A DNA stretch of 64,000 bases from an uncultured Phycisphaerales bacterium (lineage in GTDB: Bacteria > Planctomycetota > B15-G4 > CAYZWU01): contig CAYXGI010000009.1 in the NCBI GenBank assembly GCA_964464495.1, positions 42,498 to 106,497 on the forward strand, written 5' to 3'. This document shows, piece after piece, positions 6,188 to 15,084 of the stretch. Position 1 is the first letter of the stretch. Each line of letters begins with the position of its first letter. Both the position numbers and the translations under genes were made by a program. Under the pieces are notes generated by a model that saw nothing but the letters and a program-made list of their open reading frames with translations, was not told the DNA's origin and did not search any database.

Positions 6188-7213
6188 TCAACTCACGGCC
6201 GCCATGCGGCGTCCGACAGCGGCCGCAATGGGGCGCAGCTCGTCCATCATCGCCTCGAACTCGTCGAAGTGGAGGCTCTGGTCCCCGTCGCAGAGCGCGG
6301 TCTCGGGCGAAGGGTGCACCTCGACGATGACCCCGTCGGCGCCCGCGGCAACGGCCGCCCTCGACACGGCCGCGATGATGTCGCGCCGGCCCGTGGCGTG
6401 GCTCGGATCGACGATCACCGGAAGGTGGCTGCACTGCTTGATCACTGGCACGGCGCAGATGTCGAGGGTGTTGCGCGTCGCCTTCTCGAAGGTCCTGATG
6501 CCGCGCTCGCAGAACATGACCTGGCTGTTGCCGTTGGCGAGGATGTACTCGGCCGCGAGGAGGAGTTCCTCCACCGTGCACATCATGCCCCTTTTCAGCA
6601 GAACCGGTTTCTTGACCCGGCCCACGGCCTCGAGAAGGGAATAGTTCTGCATGTTGCGCGCCCCGACCTGAAGGATGTCGGCGTAGCGGCAGACGAGGGG
6701 AACGAGATCCGGCGCCATCACCTCGGTCACGATGGGCAGGCCGGTCTCGGCCTTGGCGGCAAGCAGGATCTTGAGTCCTTCCTCGCCCATGCCCTGGAAA
6801 CTGTAGGGCGATGTGCGCGGCTTGAACGCGCCGCCACGCAAGATACGGCCGCCCGCGGCGCGCACCGCCCGGGCGGCCGATTTGAGCTGCTCCGACGATT
6901 CGACCGAACAGGGACCGGCCATGACGACGAACTCGTCGCCGCCGATCGAGACGCCGTTGACCTTGATCACCGTGTTTTCCGGCTTGTACTCACGGTTGAC
7001 GAGCTTGAACGACTTGGAGACGGGCGTCATCTGAGCCACGCCCGGCATGGTGCCGATCTGATCGAGAGTCTTCGATCGCGTCGCGCCGATCACGCCGATG
7101 ATGGTCTCGCGCGCGCCGTGCGACGGCCGGGCTTTCAGGCCCGCGGCTTCGATGGCGCGGATGACTCCGCTGATTTCGGCGACCGATGCAGTCTGGTTCA
7201 TCACGATGATCAT
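6188..7213 (-). CDS. 3-deoxy-7-phosphoheptulonate (DAHP) synthase, class I-beta, with N-terminal regulatory domain
   Basis: 341 aa. The catalytic core ([24 protein letters not shown]...[11 protein letters not shown]) is preceded by a ~75 aa N-terminal domain like the ferredoxin-like regulatory domain of Thermotoga/Bacillus-type DAHPS. The start overlaps the trpA stop. Confidence 0.9.
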
Positions 7214-8061
7214 CTTTGTCGACTCCTCTTCGGCGGATTGATCGCCTCTTGTACAGTGTGCAGGAACTCTTCCACTTTTTCCACAGCCGCCTCCGGCGAG
7301 GGCGCCGCGTCGATGATCCTGATCAGGGCGCTCCCGATGATCACTCCGTCGACGCGCGCCGTGGCGCGCACGGCGTGTTCGGGTGTGGCAATCCCGAAAC
7401 CGGCGTAGAGCGGGAGGCGCGCCAGGGAACGGACCCTGTCGACGAATGCGTCGAAGACGCCGGTATCAGCCGCGCTCGATCCCGTCACTCCGGTGAGGGC
7501 CACGAGGTAGAGAAATCCCTCGGCATCGCTACTGATCGCCGCCAGCCTCTCCGGGCTCGATGTGAGCGCCACGAGGTCGACGAGGGTGATCGACTCTCTT
7601 GCGAGTGCCCGGCGCGGTCCGTCCGATTCTTCGATGGGGAGGTCGGGAATGATCACGCCCTTGACGCCCGACTCGGCCGCTGTGCGCGCAAAGCGTTCGA
7701 TCCCCATGCGCATGATCGGATTCAGGTAGCCCATGGCGCAGATGGAGACGGCCGATTTCGTCGACGCCGATACCGACTGCGTCGACACCGACTCCGTCGA
7801 CGCTTGCCGTGTCAGGGCGAGCGCCCGGGAAAGGGTCATTCCCCGCGCCAGAGCCGCCTCGGACGAAGCCTGGATCACCGGCCCGTCGGCAATCGGGTCG
7901 GAGAAGGGGATGCCGATTTCGACGACGCGGCACCCGGCCCTGACCGCGGCGGCCACGAGGGCGAGGAATGTCTCCTCGTCGGGGTAACCGGCAGTGAAAA
8001 AGGGAACGAGTGCTTTTAGTCCCGAGGTGCGCATCCTGTCCGTGGTGTCTGAGAGGTTCAT
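7210..8061 (-). CDS. trpA: tryptophan synthase alpha subunit
   Basis: The ORF track gives a 544 aa ORF with a low-complexity Arg/Gly-rich N-terminal extension that I reject. The TrpA-homologous part starts [28 protein letters not shown] at ATG 8061..8059. This ATG overlaps the trpB TGA (ATGA overlap). Confidence 0.85.
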
Positions 8062-9245
8062 TGTTTCAGGCGCTCCTCCACGCTTTCGACGTCCTTGTCT
8101 CCCCGGCCGGAGAGATTGATGACGATCAGGTCGGCGACGGTGTCCGCGCGGGCGAGCAGCTTGACCGTATGGGCCAGCGCGTGACTCGACTCGAGAGCGG
8201 GCAGGATCCCCTCGATCCGCGTGAGAAGACCGAACGCATCGAGAGCCTCTGCATCGGTCACCCGCGAGTAGGTCACGCGGTTCGAGTCCTTGAGGAAACT
8301 GTGCTCCGGTCCCACGCCGGGGTAGTCGAGACCGGCCGCGATCGAGTGAGCGGGCAGGACCTGTCCGTCGTCGTCCTGCATCAGGTAGCTGAACGAGCCG
8401 TGAAGGACGCCCGGTTCGCCCTCGCAGAGCGCGGCCGCGTGGCCGTCGGCCGAGCCGCCCGCCTCGACGCCGTGCAGCGCCACGGCCTCGTCGCCGACGA
8501 AAGCGACGAAGATGCCGAGCGCGTTCGACCCGCCGCCCACGCAGGCGATCACATGGGACGGGAGGCGCCCTTCGATCTCGAGAATCTGGCGCCGCGCTTC
8601 GAGACCGATCACTTTCTGAAAATCGCGCACCACCGTGGGGTAGGGGTGGGGGCCGACCGTCGATCCGATGATGTAGTGGGTGCTCTCCACCCGGGTCACC
8701 CAGTCGCGGATCGTCTCGTTGGTGGCGTCCTTGAGGGTTTGCGTGCCGCTCGTCACGGGAACCACCGCCGCGCCGAGGAGCTCCATGCGGCGCACGTTGG
8801 GATTTTGCCGCGCCATGTCGACGGCGCCCATGTAGATGGTGCACTCCATGCCGAAGAGCGCCGCCACCGTGGCCGTGGCCACGCCGTGCTGGCCGGCGCC
8901 GGTCTCGGCCACGATGCGCGTCTTGCTCATGCGGCGCGCGAGCAGGACCTGGCCGAGGCAGTTGTTGATCTTGTGGGCGCCCGTGTGATTGAGGTCCTCG
9001 CGCTTGAGATAGATCCTGGCCTTGTTGCCGCAGTGGGCGCTGAGGTTGGCCGCATGGTAGAGCGGTGTGGGCCGGCCCGAGTAGTTCTCGAGGAGGCTCT
9101 GCAATTCGGCCGTGAAAGCCGCGTCATTGACGGCGTCCTTGTAGGCGGCGTCGAACTGTTCGAGGCACGCCATCAGGGTTTCGGGCACGTACTGGCCGCC
9201 GTAGGGCCCGAATCGGCCCGGCGATCTTCGTTCACTCGTCGCCAT
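8058..9245 (-). CDS. trpB: tryptophan synthase beta subunit
   Basis: PLP-enzyme signature: [22 protein letters not shown]...HTGAHKINN. The start is chosen at the internal Met (ATG 9245..9243), not the ORF-track start at 9323, on homology extent. Confidence 0.9.
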
Positions 9246-9867
9246 TCTTGACCTCCGCGATGAAGCGTTTGACGGCCGCAGTATCCTTGACGCCCGGCTC
9301 CTTTTCCACGCCGCGGCAGACATCGACGCCGAAGGGCCGGACTTTTCTTACTGCCTCCCTCACATTCGTGGGATCGAGGCCTCCGGCGAGGAAGAGTTCG
9401 TATCCCCTGCGACTGGCCTCGGCCGCCTCGCTCCAGAGTGCGTCGATCGCTTTCATCCGAACCGGCTCGGTCTTGTCGAGATCGAGGAGAAAGTGGGCCG
9501 GCGCGATCTGCGCCGCGGGATCCTTCCTGTCGAGAAGGCGGCCCTGGGCGAGGGCCTTGACGAGCGGCAGCCCGGTGCGGGCGTGGAGCTCGGTGCAATA
9601 GGAGGCTGATTCGCTGCCGTGGAGCTGGATCATGTCGAGACCGGCGACTTGCGCGGTACGGACGATTTCGTCGAGATCGGCATCCATGAACACACCCACG
9701 AGGCGCGCATCGGGCACGGCGCGGCGGATCGCGGCGGCTTCCTCGGACGTGATCCGCCTGGGACTGTCGGCGAAGATCACCCCGAGGAAATCAGCACCCA
9801 TGCCGTGGCAGAGGAGTGCGTCCTCGGGTGAGGTGATGCCGCAGATCTTGATCTTGACCGCGTTCAT
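9232..9867 (-). CDS. trpF: phosphoribosylanthranilate isomerase
   Basis: Homology begins [21 protein letters not shown] 9867..9865 overlaps the trpC stop (ATGA). The upstream Arg-rich extension in the ORF track is rejected. Confidence 0.85.
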
Positions 9868-10658
9868 GTCGCTCCCCCGAGCAACTCCCTCAGCTTCATG
9901 GCGGGATCGCTCGATTGCAGAAGAGACCCGCCGATGAGGAACGCATCCGCGCCGAGTGCGCCGAGCTCGGCGATCTGGGCCGCATCGTCGATGCCGCTCT
10001 CGACGACGCGCACCACGTCGGCCGGAATCAGGGGAAGGAGGCCGCGCGTCGTATCGAGCGACACCTCGAGTGTGGCGAGGTTGCGGTTGTTGATTCCGAC
10101 GATGTCGGCGCCCGCGTCGAGCGCCTTGTGCAGGTCTTCCCTGTCGTGGCATTCGACGAGGGCCGCCATGCCGAGCGCCCTGATGCGTTGGAGCAGAGAC
10201 TGCAGCTCCCGCGCGCCGAGCAGCCGCGCGATGAGAAGCAAGGCGTCGGCGCCCGCGGCGCGTGCCTCTACAGCCTGGTAGGAGTCGATGACGAACTCCT
10301 TGACCAGCACGGGAAGGGCCGAGATGCAGCGCACCATGTCGACGTCGGCGAGGGACGTTCCGAAGTTCTGCGTGTCGGTCACGATCGAGATCGCTGCCGC
10401 TCCCTCGGCGTCATAGACGGCAGCGAGTTTCTCGGGCGCGCCTCCCTGCCGGAATGCGGACACGCTGGGAGATTTTTTCTTGATCTCGGCGATGATCTTG
10501 CCGCCGCCGCTGATCGCGGCCTTGAAATCACGTGGCGACTCCGACGGGAGCCGCTTCTCGAGCTCCGCTTCGGGCAGATTCCGTTTCTTGCGGGAGAGCT
10601 CCGCTTTCTTTTCCAGAACCACTCCGTCGAGAAAGTCGCCGCTAGGATGCGAGCTCAT
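9864..10658 (-). CDS. trpC: indole-3-glycerol phosphate synthase
   Basis: MSSHPSGDFLDGVVLEKKAEL...IAEIKKKSPS...LLIARLL motifs. ATG 10658..10656; 17-bp overlap with trpD. Confidence 0.85.
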   Translation of the reverse strand: MSSHPSGDFLDGVVLEKKAELSRKKRNLPEAELEKRLPSESPRDFKAAISGGGKIIAEIKKKSPSVSAFRQGGAPEKLAAVYDAEGAAAISIVTDTQNFGTSLADVDMVRCISALPVLVKEFVIDSYQAVEARAAGADALLLIARLLGARELQSLLQRIRALGMAALVECHDREDLHKALDAGADIVGINNRNLATLEVSLDTTRGLLPLIPADVVRVVESGIDDAAQIAELGALGADAFLIGGSLLQSSDPAMKLRELLGGAT

Positions 10659-11661
10659 GAGAGACCTCCCTGAGCGACTGGAGCAGTTTTTTTGCCGCAC
10701 CCGAGTCGATCGCTTCCCGTGCGAGCGCGACCCCTTCGACCGGATCGGGCGCGCGGTCGGCGAGAGCGGCGGCGAATCCGGCGTTGAGCAGGACGGCGTC
10801 GCATCGCGGTCCGCCCTTCCCGTCAACAATGTCGTTGATGTGGCCGGCGTTCTCCTCGGGCGATGCGCCGCTGATCGCCTCGATCGGCGCGCGTTCGAGG
10901 CCCGCCTCCTCGGGGGCGAAGGTGAAGGTGCGCACCCGGCCGTTCTCGAGGGCGCTCACCCTCGTCTCGCTGCTGATCGAGACCTCGTCGGTGCCGTCGA
11001 AGCCGTGGACGATGAATACTTTTTCCGAACCGAGTGTGCGGAGCACTTTGCAGAGGCGTTCGGTCAGATCGGGATGGAAGACACCGGTGAGCTGGCGCTC
11101 GACTCCGGCCGGATTGGTCAGGGGTCCGAGAATGTTGAACACGGTGCGCACGCCGAGTTCCTTGCGGACGGGCGCGGCGTGCTTCATCGCCGGATGCAGG
11201 CTGGGCGCGAAGAGAAAACCGATCCCCACGCGGTCGATCAGAGCGGCGACCTGTTCGGGCTGGAGGGCGATGTTGACGCCGAGCGCCTCGAGTACGTCGG
11301 CGCTGCCGCACTTGGACGAGACGGCGCGGTTGCCATGCTTGGCCACGGGAATCCCCAAGGCGGCGGTGACGAGCGCCGCGGCGGTCGACACGTTGAATGT
11401 GTGGCGCGCGTCGCCCCCCGTGCCGCAGGTGTCGATCATTCCTGTCCGTGCGGGCGTGATGCGGACTGCCTTCCGACGCATGGCGCTCGCGAAACCGGCG
11501 ATCTCGTCGACGGTCTCACCCTTCATGCGCAGCGCCGTGAGGATCGCCGCGATCCGGGTCTCGGACAGGGCGCCGTCCATGATCGATTCCATGAGAGCCA
11601 CGGCCTCGTCGAAGGAGAGGTCCTGTCCGTTGATAAGAGCTTCGATGGTCCGGCTGCTCAT
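10642..11661 (-). CDS. trpD: anthranilate phosphoribosyltransferase
   Basis: MSSRTIEALINGQDLS...GMIDTCGTGGDARHTFNVSTAAALV...HGNRAVSSKCGSADVLE. ATG 11661..11659 overlaps the trpG TGA (ATGA). Confidence 0.9.
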   Translation of the reverse strand: MSSRTIEALINGQDLSFDEAVALMESIMDGALSETRIAAILTALRMKGETVDEIAGFASAMRRKAVRITPARTGMIDTCGTGGDARHTFNVSTAAALVTAALGIPVAKHGNRAVSSKCGSADVLEALGVNIALQPEQVAALIDRVGIGFLFAPSLHPAMKHAAPVRKELGVRTVFNILGPLTNPAGVERQLTGVFHPDLTERLCKVLRTLGSEKVFIVHGFDGTDEVSISSETRVSALENGRVRTFTFAPEEAGLERAPIEAISGASPEENAGHINDIVDGKGGPRCDAVLLNAGFAAALADRAPDPVEGVALAREAIDSGAAKKLLQSLREVSHELAS

Positions 11662-12245
11662 GGCTGCTCCTCGTGCGGCCGGACGGTCTGGAGGTAGTTC
11701 GCCAGCAGGCCCTTCCCCTCGGGGGTCAGGATCGATTCGGGGTGGAACTGCACGCCCTCGATTCTCCGGTCGGCGAGGCGGACTCCCATGATCTCGCCTT
11801 CCGACGTGTACGCCGAAACCTGGAGCGCGTCGGGCAGGTTCTGCTCGTGCACGATGAGCGAGTGGTAGCGCGTGGCGCTGAAGGGATTGGACAGACTGTC
11901 GTAGATCGTCTTGCCGTCGTGATAGATGTTCGACACCTTGCCGTGCATGACGCGATCGGCGCGTTCGATCGTCCCGCCGTAGGCGGCCACGATGCACTGG
12001 TGGCCGAGGCAGACGCCGAGGATCGGTATGGCGCCCGCGAAGTGCTTGATCAGCTCGATCGAAACACCGGCGTCGGCCGGTGTGCCCGGTCCGGGGGAGA
12101 TGACGAGCGACTCGGGTTCGAGCGCCGCGGCTTCGTCGGCCGTGATCCGGTCGTTGCGGAAGACGCGGACCTTTTCGCCCAGCTCGCCCAGGGCCTGAAC
12201 AATGTTGAAGGTGAACGAGTCGTAGTTATCGATGAGGAGATGCAT
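11658..12245 (-). CDS. trpG: anthranilate synthase component II (glutamine amidotransferase)
   Basis: MHLLIDNYDSFTFNIVQ...GVCLGHQ...HPES class-I GATase signature. ATG 12245..12243. Sits 2 bp downstream of the trpE stop. Confidence 0.9.
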   Translation of the reverse strand: MHLLIDNYDSFTFNIVQALGELGEKVRVFRNDRITADEAAALEPESLVISPGPGTPADAGVSIELIKHFAGAIPILGVCLGHQCIVAAYGGTIERADRVMHGKVSNIYHDGKTIYDSLSNPFSATRYHSLIVHEQNLPDALQVSAYTSEGEIMGVRLADRRIEGVQFHPESILTPEGKGLLANYLQTVRPHEEQP

Positions 12246-12247
12246 GA

Positions 12248-13720
12248 TCAAAATCCTTCTTCTGCGATGGAGACGGCCTTGATGATCGCCCTGACCTTGT
12301 CGAGCGTTTCCTTGTACTCGAAGGCGGGGTCGGAGTCGGCCACGATCCCGGCCCCGGCCTGGGCATAATACCGCTTGCCTTTCATGAAGAGCGTGCGGAT
12401 CGTGATGCACATGTCCATGTCTCCCTGCCGGCCGAAGTAGCCCACGGCGCCTCCGTAAGGTCCGCGCTGCTCTTTTTCGAGATCGCCGATGATCTCCATG
12501 GCGCGGATCTTGGGAGCGCCCGTGAGCGTGCCGGCGGGGAAGACGGCGCGGAGCAGGTCGTACATGTCGAGGTCGTTTTGCAGTGAACCCGTGACCTGGG
12601 AGACGATGTGCATCACGTGCGAGTATCTCTCGATATGCATGAGAGATTCTGTTTTGACCGACCCGATCTCACACACGCGCCCGAGATCGTTGCGTCCGAG
12701 GTCGACGAGCATGACGTGCTCGGCGCACTCCTTCTCGTTGCTCAGGAGTTCCTCCTCGAGAGCGAGGTCCTCCGTGGGCGTGTTGCCCCTGGGACGAGTG
12801 CCCGCGATGGGGCAGAGGGTGACGCGCTGCTCGTCGAGCTTGACGAGCACCTCGGGCGAGGAGCCGATGATCTGGTAGTCGTCGAAGTCGATGAAGAACA
12901 TGTAAGGCGAGGGATTGAGAATCCGCAAGGCGCGATAGATCTGGAAGGGCGATGCGCCGGTCTCGCCCCTCAGGCATTGGGAGAGAACTATCTGGAAGGC
13001 GTCGCCGGCAAGGATGTGATCCTTGGCGCGCAGAACGTTGGCGGTGAATTCCTCTTCGGTCACGTTGGAAGCGGGTGACGCGAGCCGCTCGGCGGGCGCC
13101 CCGGTTCCCCCGTTCTGCAGGGGCGAGCGGAATGCGTCGAGAAGAAGATCGATCTGATTTTTCGCCACCGTGTAGGCCTCCTCCGGGTCCTGGTGGTCGG
13201 GCAGGACGAGAATCTCGATCTCGCTCTTCACGTGATCGAACACGGCGAGCGCCCCTGGAAAGAGAAAACGATAGTCGGGCAAGCCGAGCCCTTCGCCCCT
13301 GGAGAGTGGGATGTTCTCGAAGTAACGCACCATGTCGTAGGCGATGTATCCCACGGCGCCCGCGAAGGGACCGGGCAACCGGCCGCCGGCCAGATCCCCG
13401 GAATCGGCCAGTTCGTCGCGCACGGTTGCGAAGGGATCGGCAAGGTCGACCGGCTGTGCGGTGCTCGTCCCGTTCCTTCGAATGGTGACGGTCTCGTTCT
13501 GGAGGCTGATGTCGGCGTAGGGCGCGATCCCGATGAAGGAGTATCTCCCCACCTGGATCCCGCGCTCCACACTCTCGAGGAGAAAAGCCGCCCCCCGGTT
13601 CTTGAGCTTGAGATAAGCGGACACCGGCGTGTCGAGATCCGCGGGAATCGTCTTTCTCAGCGGCACGCGGCGCCCCTGGTCGGCTTTTTTCAGATAGTCG
13701 TCGAGAGATGGGGTCAACAT
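12248..13720 (-). CDS. trpE: anthranilate synthase component I
   Basis: MLTPSLDDYLKKADQGRRVPL... chorismate-binding enzyme over ~490 aa. The start is taken at the internal Met (ATG 13720..13718). The 48-codon upstream extension in the ORF track is the leader region. Confidence 0.9.
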   Translation of the reverse strand: MLTPSLDDYLKKADQGRRVPLRKTIPADLDTPVSAYLKLKNRGAAFLLESVERGIQVGRYSFIGIAPYADISLQNETVTIRRNGTSTAQPVDLADPFATVRDELADSGDLAGGRLPGPFAGAVGYIAYDMVRYFENIPLSRGEGLGLPDYRFLFPGALAVFDHVKSEIEILVLPDHQDPEEAYTVAKNQIDLLLDAFRSPLQNGGTGAPAERLASPASNVTEEEFTANVLRAKDHILAGDAFQIVLSQCLRGETGASPFQIYRALRILNPSPYMFFIDFDDYQIIGSSPEVLVKLDEQRVTLCPIAGTRPRGNTPTEDLALEEELLSNEKECAEHVMLVDLGRNDLGRVCEIGSVKTESLMHIERYSHVMHIVSQVTGSLQNDLDMYDLLRAVFPAGTLTGAPKIRAMEIIGDLEKEQRGPYGGAVGYFGRQGDMDMCITIRTLFMKGKRYYAQAGAGIVADSDPAFEYKETLDKVRAIIKAVSIAEEGF

Positions 13721-13861
13721 GGGCGATTCCTTCTTAATGTGGAGGCAAAGCGCGGGCCCGTCGATCGAGCGCAGCGCGGGGTTCTGCCGGCTGCGGGCCC
13801 ATCCTTTCCTTTTCGTCATTCTGCGAGCGAAATGCTCGTCAATCCGTGCAAAAAAGAGGCA

Positions 13862-13896
13862 CAAAAAAAAGACCCGCTGTCAGTCGGACAGCAGGT
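13862..13896 (-). terminator. intrinsic terminator hairpin + U8 in the trpE 5' leader (attenuator terminator)
   Basis: Minus-strand RNA reads GACCUGCUGUCCGACUGACAGCGGGUCUUUUUUUU. It lies ~30 nt after the leader-peptide stop and ~140 nt before the trpE ATG. Confidence 0.6.
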
Positions 13897-13928
13897 CGCG
13901 CGAATTCTGTTTATCTCGATCAACCGAT

Positions 13929-14039
13929 TCAGGTCAGATTTTCGGGAGCGGCTGTCCGTGGGGCAATGGCGTACCATCGCCACCAGCGCCAGCGGAGCGC
14001 CCGAGCAGAATGTAAAACCTCGTTCGGTTTCTGTCTCAT
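13929..14039 (-). CDS. trp operon leader peptide (36 aa, four Trp codons)
   Basis: Minus strand ATG 14039..14037 to TGA 13931..13929. Translation: MRQKPNEVLHSARALRWRWWRWYAIAPRTAAPENLT. There is an in-frame upstream TGA and no earlier ATG. Too short for the ORF track (<60 aa). Confidence 0.6.
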   Translation of the reverse strand: MRQKPNEVLHSARALRWRWWRWYAIAPRTAAPENLT

Positions 14040-14378
14040 GATGACTCGATCGTGACTGAAAAGACGGGGCTCGAAAAACGGTCAAATTGAATCAAAGAAA
14101 ATACATTAAATTGTGAAACTGTCAAGGGGAAAAAGAAAACGCGCTCCATGAGCCTGTCGGAATTGGAAATCGATCATGACTCCGGTTGAAAGGAACGAAG
14201 ACAAATGACTCTCGCAAAGCCGCCAGGGGCGCAAAGGAGGATAAGAGGTGGATTCAGGATTCAGAATCTTCTTGCGGCTGGCTGTACTGGCCGGTTCCCG
14301 ACCCGACAGTTTGCCGTGAAGCATTTTTCAATGAGCTGCTTGGCCTATAGCATCGATTTTCAAATTTTCTCTTTTTCT

Positions 14379-14424
14379 TTGACGTCCCGGAGGTGGGTGG
14401 CGTATAATTCCGAACGAACGTTCG
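14379..14424 (+). promoter_or_regulatory. sigma-70-like promoter (TTGACG-N18-TATAAT) with downstream 10-bp perfect palindrome CGAACGTTCG (putative TetR operator)
   Basis: TTGACG at 14379..14384 and TATAAT at 14403..14408. Palindrome at 14415..14424. All lie immediately upstream of the TetR gene. Confidence 0.5.
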
Positions 14425-14442
14425 ATAATATTATGACCTTTT

Positions 14443-15084
14443 TTGGGCAGAGCCATGATTCCGAAACCGACGCCCCGGAACAGACGCCCCGCAACGGACA
14501 AGAAATTTTCGCGGATTTTCACCGCGGCCGTAAAGGTCTTCTCGAAAACAGGTTTCGAGAAGGCATCGATCAGGATGGTGGCGGCGAAAGCCAAGGTCAG
14601 CCTGGCGGGGATCTACTATCACGTTCACTCGAAAGAGGAGCTTCTCTTTCTGATCCAGTACAAGGCGTTTCACACGATCCTCGAGAATCTCAAAACCACG
14701 CAGGGCGAGTTCGACGAATCCCGGCCTGTGGCGCGCCTTCACGCGATGATCAGGAATCACCTCGATTACTTTCTGAACAACATGGACGACTTGAGGATCT
14801 GCTCGCGCGAGCTCGATATTCTCACCGGCGTTTTCTACAAGAAGGTGGCCGAGGTGCGGCGCGAGTACTTCAAGATGACCCTCGATATGGTCAAGGACGT
14901 TTCCCGCGGGGACGGAAAGGACGCTGCCGTCGACCCGCGCACGGCAACGCTCTGTCTCTTCGGGATGTTGAATTGGGTCTACACCTGGTACGACCCTGGG
15001 AAAGACACTCCCGAAAGCCTGTCGGAACAACTGCTGCGGTTGTATCTTCATGGTGTCCACTCCGGGATCGAAGGGAGAACTTGA
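14443..15084 (+). CDS. TetR/AcrR family transcriptional regulator
   Basis: N-terminal HTH (FSRIFTAAVKVFSKTGFEKASIRMVAAKAKVSLAGIYYHVHSKEELL) plus an all-alpha C-terminal domain. An alternative start lies at M5 (14455). Confidence 0.85.
   Translation: MGRAMIPKPTPRNRRPATDKKFSRIFTAAVKVFSKTGFEKASIRMVAAKAKVSLAGIYYHVHSKEELLFLIQYKAFHTILENLKTTQGEFDESRPVARLHAMIRNHLDYFLNNMDDLRICSRELDILTGVFYKKVAEVRREYFKMTLDMVKDVSRGDGKDAAVDPRTATLCLFGMLNWVYTWYDPGKDTPESLSEQLLRLYLHGVHSGIEGRT

Follow-up and report, generated by a model that had tools for sequence, protein, structure and literature searches.

The 64,000-nt stretch of DNA analysed here (the window) carries a tryptophan operon, trpEGDCFBA, on its minus strand, with a gene for a DAHP synthase directly 3' of trpA (Table 1). 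The DAHP synthase gene runs over the trpA stop by a few bases. The entry step of aromatic biosynthesis thus seems to share its transcript, and with it the attenuation, with the trp genes. A divergent gene for a TetR-family regulator lies upstream, and the intergenic region is common to this gene and the trp promoter. Ahead of trpE and on the same strand, a sigma-70-like promoter, a small Trp-rich ORF and an intrinsic terminator follow each other. Since the upstream neighbour is divergent, the terminator closes no gene. We infer a transcript start near 14091.

Table 1. Genes and regulatory features around the trp leader (positions are those of the window)
Feature	Position	Strand	Description
TetR-family regulator gene	14443..15084	+	Divergent neighbour upstream of the trp leader
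TetR-side promoter-like site	14379..14408	+	TTGACG-18-TATAAT, strong
Sigma-70-like promoter	14125..14098	-	TTGACA 14125..14120, 16-nt spacer, TATTTT 14103..14098; 10/12 consensus matches
Leader ORF (trpL-like)	14039..13929	-	ATG 14039, 36 codons, TGA 13931..13929; translation MRQKPNEVLHSARALRWRWWRWYAIAPRTAAPENLT
Segment 1	14004..13974	-	5' strand of the predicted 1:2 hairpin (MFE pairs); holds all four Trp codons
Regulatory Trp codon block	13974..13991	-	UGG-CGC-UGG-UGG-CGA-UGG (W-R-W-W-R-W)
Segment 2	13969..13942	-	Partner of segment 1, inside the leader ORF; core CGGACAGCCGC 13958..13948 alternatively pairs with segment 3
Segment 3	13899..13885	-	GCG 13899..13897 and GCUGUCCG 13892..13885; common to the antiterminator and the terminator 5' arm
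Intrinsic terminator (3:4)	13897..13863	-	Stem 13897..13871, GACCUGCUGUC / GACAGCGGGUC, 11 bp with 7 G-C pairs; loop CGACU; T8 13870..13863
Operon trpEGDCFBA and DAHP synthase	13720..6188	-	Pfam matches; ORF starts as listed, unrefined
trpE	13720..12248	-	Chorismate_bind and Anth_synt_I_N; ATG 13720
trpG	to 11658	-	Pfam match
trpD	to 10642	-	Pfam match
trpC	to 9864	-	Pfam match
trpF	to 9232	-	Pfam match
trpB	9323..8058	-	Pfam match
trpA	to 7210	-	Pfam match
DAHP synthase	7213..6188	-	N-terminal ferredoxin-like domain

The initial annotation of this DNA had described a 36-codon leader ORF with Trp at codons 17, 19, 20 and 22. The ORF is present on the minus strand at the coordinates given there, with its UGG codons at 13991-89, 13985-83, 13982-80 and 13976-74. 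The upstream in-frame TGA that had also been described was located at 14084..14082, and no ATG, GTG or TTG was found between it and the ATG at 14039. The Shine-Dalgarno sequence before this ATG is weak (GAG only). Fourteen codons remain in the ORF beyond the last Trp codon, and segment 2 is therefore translated. The sequence suggests that the leader ORF is translated and that ribosomes stall at its Trp codons. In the window, an additional TGA in the same frame precedes the ancestral stop by three codons (TGA-ATC-GGT-TGA).

The terminator starts 31 nt past the leader stop codon. The annotated hairpin with its U8 tract was found, and the boundaries drawn for it (13896..13862) were slightly short of the stem given in Table 1. 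The trpE start codon lies about 142 nt past the U tract, where roughly 140 nt had been estimated. The segment GGACAGC, noted earlier around 13955 as a possible partner of GCUGUCC in the terminator 5' arm, was placed at 13957..13951; the two are complementary, and the pairing is longer than stated, extending to CGGACAGC (13958..13951) with GCUGUCCG plus CGC with GCG.

The spacer between the terminator and trpE folded no better than its shuffles (z = -0.5), and a second element is not claimed there. Within this spacer, at 13800..13861 on the minus strand, the window has a 21-nt insertion (CGGATTGACGAGCATTTCGCT) that is absent from L001, one of the relatives described below.

Folding of the leader RNA gave a structure that beat all 200 dinucleotide shuffles (z = -3.3). 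In the minimum free energy structure of the inferred transcript (14091..13860), segment 1 (14004..13974) pairs with segment 2 (13969..13942) and the terminator is formed too. With a 30-nt ribosome footprint over any one of the Trp codons and a transcript cut before segment 4, the core of segment 2 paired with GCG and GCUGUCCG of segment 3 and consumed the terminator 5' arm. The calculated energies in the window were -35.6 kcal/mol for the 1:2 hairpin, -25.3 kcal/mol for 2:3 (helix alone -14.4) and -18.7 kcal/mol for the 3:4 terminator. With segment 1 free, 1:2 and 3:4 are favoured together by these energies; with segment 1 covered, 2:3 beats 3:4. As modelled, the ranking 1:2 > 2:3 > 3:4 is what a working switch needs. 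A fold of the minus-strand leader had been proposed as a check on the annotation, and the alternative 1:2, 2:3 and 3:4 pairings were all found in such folds.

The TrpE of the window was scanned against one genome per species, which returned 80 loci, and the 24 closest were analysed together with the window (25 sequences). All 24 were uncultured MAGs, with TrpE identities of 59-90%. They are labelled as Krumholzibacteriia, Latescibacteria, Eisenbacteria or simply 'bacterium', and the closest three labelled ones are given as Phycisphaerales. L001, L002 and L004 are titled 'uncultured Phycisphaerales', and L007 and L011-L022 are titled Krumholzibacteriia, Latescibacteria or Eisenbacteria. These labels conflict: either some of them are mistaken, or the trp operon has been transferred from one phylum to another. 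A limited literature search returned no paper linking Krumholzibacteriota with trp regulation.

The Trp-rich small ORF and the intrinsic terminator, whose conservation in relatives had been named beforehand as a second check, were found in all 24 loci together with the promoter, and the order promoter, small ORF, terminator and trpE was kept in each. The promoter has at least 9 of 12 consensus matches in 25 of 25 sequences, mostly with a perfect TTGACA, and lies 41-137 nt before the first Trp codon. An ATG is found 10-18 codons ahead of the Trp block in nearly all relatives. The blocks themselves include WRWWRW, WRWWWY, WSWWWY, WWWC, CWWC and WWAWRAW. In all 25 sequences the clustered TGGs of the block share one frame, and this frame is open from a start codon to a stop that is always reached within segment 2 or beyond it, but ahead of segment 3. 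The conserved frame and start codon lend indirect support to translation of the leader. The more distant loci L025-L064 (Chloroflexota, Nitrospirota, Nitrospinota and Geobacter-like) contained no such Trp-rich ORF.

Many members of the family, the window included, have a weak Shine-Dalgarno-like motif or none. In L011 and L020 (also in L013, L015 and L016), the end of the -10 hexamer lies merely about 8-23 nt before the leader ATG, and with the two so near each other some leader mRNAs may be leaderless or nearly so.

Alignment of the window with L001 showed that the promoter block is almost unchanged, while the flanking DNA has diverged. In these two sequences the identity over 14091..14125 (minus strand of the window) reaches past the -35 and -10 hexamers, following CTTGACAGTTTC.C.ATTT.ATGTATTTTCTTTGAT.CAA. 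The conserved stretch beyond the hexamers could be a repressor operator. The TetR gene was considered as a conserved co-regulator and rejected, being found among the relatives in L001 only (84% identity).

A metagenome pattern scan with TGGCGNTGGTGGCGNTGG was uninformative. It returned at least 120 stretches, mostly other frames of ordinary coding DNA, and none of the matches listed encodes TrpE.

A MAFFT alignment of all 25 sequences was made without structural input; it begins 15 nt ahead of the Trp block and extends to the U tract (mean column identity 45%). For the terminator (3:4), 92.7% of the cells were paired and 6 of 11 pairs were compensatory; none of 500 shuffles was as good, controls with slid registers reached 37-56%, and RNAalifold recovered the helix de novo. 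For the antiterminator (2:3; alignment columns 75-84 with 157-166), 77.4% of the cells were paired and 9 of 10 pairs were compensatory. Again none of 500 shuffles was as good; slid controls reached 30-54%, and the paired fraction stands in spite of a one-column register shift visible in one subgroup. The antiterminator strand and its partner change together, from GGACAGC/GCUGUCC in the window to GGAUAGUGG/CCACUAUCC in L003, GGAAUGUGGG/CCCACUUCC in L012 and GGUGGUGG/CCACCAUC in L008.

The complementarity was also measured without an alignment, as the best duplex between the terminator 5' arm and the preceding spacer, compared with dinucleotide-shuffled spacers. The mean z was -2.8, and in 19 of 25 genomes no more than 4% of the shuffles were as good. 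In the stalled-ribosome folds described below, the 5'-arm partner lies 13-31 nt past the last Trp codon in most genomes, just beyond the leading edge of a ribosome stalled there. The antiterminator and terminator first proposed for the window as alternatives thus both covary, and the complementarity of the antiterminator beats shuffled sequence in most genomes.

In the register of the window, 60.5% of the 1:2 cells were paired family-wide, compared with 42-53% in slid controls, and the inner 1:2 hairpin over the Trp codons was 67.5% paired, with 7 of 10 pairs compensatory. The duplex-versus-shuffle test for 1:2 was not significant; it is a poor test, since G+C-rich partners always give low energies. 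The 1:2 helix is predicted in the window, and family-wide support for it is weak.

When a stalled ribosome was modelled and the transcript was cut before segment 4, 20 of 25 genomes had at least 70% of the terminator 5' arm paired; in folds of cut transcripts without a ribosome, the 5' arm was often paired as well. Equilibrium folds of the full-length leader with the Trp codons masked gave another picture: the terminator persisted in 20 of 25 genomes and was replaced by the antiterminator in 5. The terminator usually wins at equilibrium, so the switch would have to be kinetic and chosen during transcription, as in E. coli. Full-length equilibrium folding was rejected as a test because the decision falls during transcription, and cut transcripts were used instead.

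Two placements of the leader stop codon were found in the family. In L001, L011, L013-L016, L018 and L020 the stop is a UAG within the segment-2 motif GGAUAGCGG; in the window and most of the others it lies 36-54 nt past the last Trp codon. Comparison of L001 with the window (L001:2213-2384 versus 13862..14006) showed that a 23-nt insertion in the L001 ORF produces the change of stop. With the UAG in segment 2, a terminating ribosome would mask this segment directly. A ribosome at the window's stop (13931) leaves segment 2 uncovered, so that termination under Trp excess relies on timing or on refolding of 1:2. The two designs may be two kinetic solutions, masking by the ribosome and 1:2 refolding behind it. 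The family has kept its RNA switch even though the leader stop moves into or out of segment 2.

The element is very probably a classical ribosome-mediated Trp attenuator of the trp operon. The order of its parts, their conservation, the covariation of terminator and antiterminator and the ranking of the energies come directly from the sequence and its comparison. On this reading translation would be coupled to transcription, and transcripts would actually end at the hairpin.

Transcription would begin at the conserved promoter, and the 36-codon leader would be translated as it is made. If charged tRNA-Trp is scarce, the ribosome would stall on W-R-W-W-R-W (13991..13974), with a footprint that hides segment 1 and stops just short of CGGACAGCCGC. 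The freed CGGACAGCCGC could then pair with GCG/GCUGUCCG once these are transcribed. This antiterminator uses up the terminator 5' arm, and RNA polymerase would therefore read into trpEGDCFBA and the DAHP synthase gene. If Trp is plentiful, the ribosome would pass the Trp codons and segment 2, and behind it the most stable helix, that of segments 1 and 2, would form again, so that without a stall segment 2 would be either covered or recaptured. Segment 3 would be left for segment 4, and the hairpin with its U8 tract would end the transcript at about 13863.

The same terminator and antiterminator could be set by a factor acting in trans, such as a TRAP-like protein or an uncharged tRNA bound as in a T-box, with the UGG stretch as the binding or pairing element and the ORF incidental. 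We consider this improbable. The weak Shine-Dalgarno sequence of the window and the fact that the UGG repeats double as an RNA helix strand would suit it. Leaders bound by TRAP carry about 9-11 (G/U)AG triplets at a spacing of 2-3 nt, overlapping an antiterminator. On reading the sequence, such an array is absent from the leader, whose repeats are UGG codons instead. The T-box covariance model gave no match in 13500..14500 of the window or in 20 relatives, and no Rfam family reached its gathering score in those relatives. Trp operons of other phyla do use TRAP or T-boxes (PMC3064811, PMC2965389); an incidental ORF, however, would not be expected to keep its UGGs in one open frame, usually begun by an ATG, with a conserved placement of the stop in 25 of 25 genomes. 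Nor does it account for a footprint on the last Trp codon that ends where the antiterminator strand begins.

Alternatively, the ORF might encode a functional Trp-rich peptide and stand next to an unrelated constitutive or leaky terminator, with trpE regulated elsewhere, for example by a repressor at the promoter. Such a peptide has a precedent in peTrpL of Sinorhizobium, which acts in trans (PMC7298713), and the promoter block conserved past its -10 hexamer in the window and L001 offers a possible operator. However, comparison of the leader peptides showed that they are alike in the Trp block alone, with unrelated N-termini. The residues after the block track the RNA motif GGAYRGYGG (R/G, then T/I/M, then A/V) and vary as the RNA pairing dictates. 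The constraint therefore seems to lie on the RNA and the Trp codons, not on the peptide. Although the RNA segments are fixed in place, the stop also occupies either of two positions, and the covariation of the antiterminator is left without explanation. This makes a functional peptide highly improbable, more so than a trans-acting factor.

A chance meeting of a Trp-rich ORF with a terminator is effectively refuted: G+C-rich DNA does give many small ORFs and hairpins (a consensus scan found 6 terminator sites in the window and 4.3 in shuffles), but only one block with four Trp within six codons turns up when all six frames of the window are read, where block shuffles predict 0.06, and the arrangement recurs with covariation in 24 of 24 relatives.

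The ribosome-mediated attenuator thus favoured was compared with known leaders. Rfam searches of 13500..14500 gave no match up to E = 10, the enterobacterial Trp leader included, and no gathering score was reached across the 64-kb window, which therefore contains neither rRNA genes nor riboswitches nor any other curated RNA family of Rfam. Pfam and NCBIfam leader-peptide models gave no match up to E = 10 with the four leader peptides searched. Lacking a match in Rfam, Pfam or NCBIfam, the element does not belong to the enterobacterial trpL family. The term 'E. coli-style' used in the initial annotation therefore holds for the mechanism and fails for family membership; as judged from its sequence, the element works like E. 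coli trpL from outside that family.

The mechanism of trp attenuation in E. coli is described in PMC1183508. Like the trpL leaders of E. coli and Salmonella (Rfam Trp_leader), the element has a promoter-proximal small ORF with UGG codons beside Arg codons (UGG-UGG-CGC in E. coli), four segments with mutually exclusive 1:2, 2:3 and 3:4 pairings, and, immediately before trpE, an intrinsic terminator. The leader peptide here has 36 aa and four Trp codons in the middle of the ORF, whereas that of E. coli has 14 aa and two Trp codons. Segment 2 is translated here, whereas the E. coli stop lies near the boundary of segments 1 and 2. The 1:2 helix is far more stable than 2:3 in the window, while the stabilities in E. 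coli are similar (PMC1183508). The distance of about 140 nt from the terminator to trpE also sets the window apart from E. coli, and no TrpR-type control is evident in the window.

Trp attenuators of the classical kind are established in Proteobacteria, and in Actinobacteria they have been predicted (PMC1262725). For Firmicutes, attenuators with leader peptides were described later (PMC2965389), and a broader attenuator survey, that of Lopatovskaya et al. 2010, is cited in PMC4833913. The actinobacterial trp attenuators (Corynebacterium, Streptomyces) are predictions from comparative genomics (PMC1262725). They share with the present family UGG codons in twos or threes, terminators that are G+C-rich and carry poly-U, and conserved complementary triples common to antiterminator and terminator (PMC1262725). 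The motif is GGAYRGCGG / CCGCYRTCC / GGAYRGCGGG here and gGCC-rGCy-GGCC in Actinobacteria. The lineage is unrelated, and the actinobacterial leader peptides are different and shorter.

Bacillus TRAP and T-box leaders likewise place terminator and antiterminator alternatives before trp genes (PMC3064811). They sense Trp by a protein, or tRNA by RNA pairing, without a translated leader. The rnTrpL leader of Sinorhizobium meliloti, a ribosome-dependent attenuator before trpE(G), gives rise on termination to a short leader RNA (PMC6614838), as is proposed for the window. Trans functions of rnTrpL and peTrpL were demonstrated in Sinorhizobium (PMC6614838, PMC7298713). By analogy, the terminated leader RNA of about 230 nt (about 14091-13863), which would be released under Trp excess, or the Trp/Arg-rich peptide might have a second job in trans, which we regard as unlikely. 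If it were so, the attenuator would also signal Trp status to other genes in an uncultured lineage.

The element most likely controls the whole tryptophan pathway together with DAHP synthase in uncultured bacteria known from metagenomes alone. The 25 sequences form a family outside Rfam that can be used to annotate such genomes. Classical attenuation works only when translation follows close behind transcription, so the conservation of the element is indirect evidence that the two are coupled in these bacteria. A textbook mechanism thereby gains another lineage; the understanding of attenuation is unchanged, and a specialist would not be surprised.

A different family of Trp leaders was seen among the more distant loci of the TrpE scan, in the Syntrophales/Syntrophaceae MAGs L065, L076, L077 and L078, at a distance of 170-385 nt before trpE. 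These leaders had no Rfam match. Their ORFs end in ...NWWWW(N/K/Q)...EGFV(H/R)... and are followed by one or two tandem terminators, each a hairpin with a U tract.
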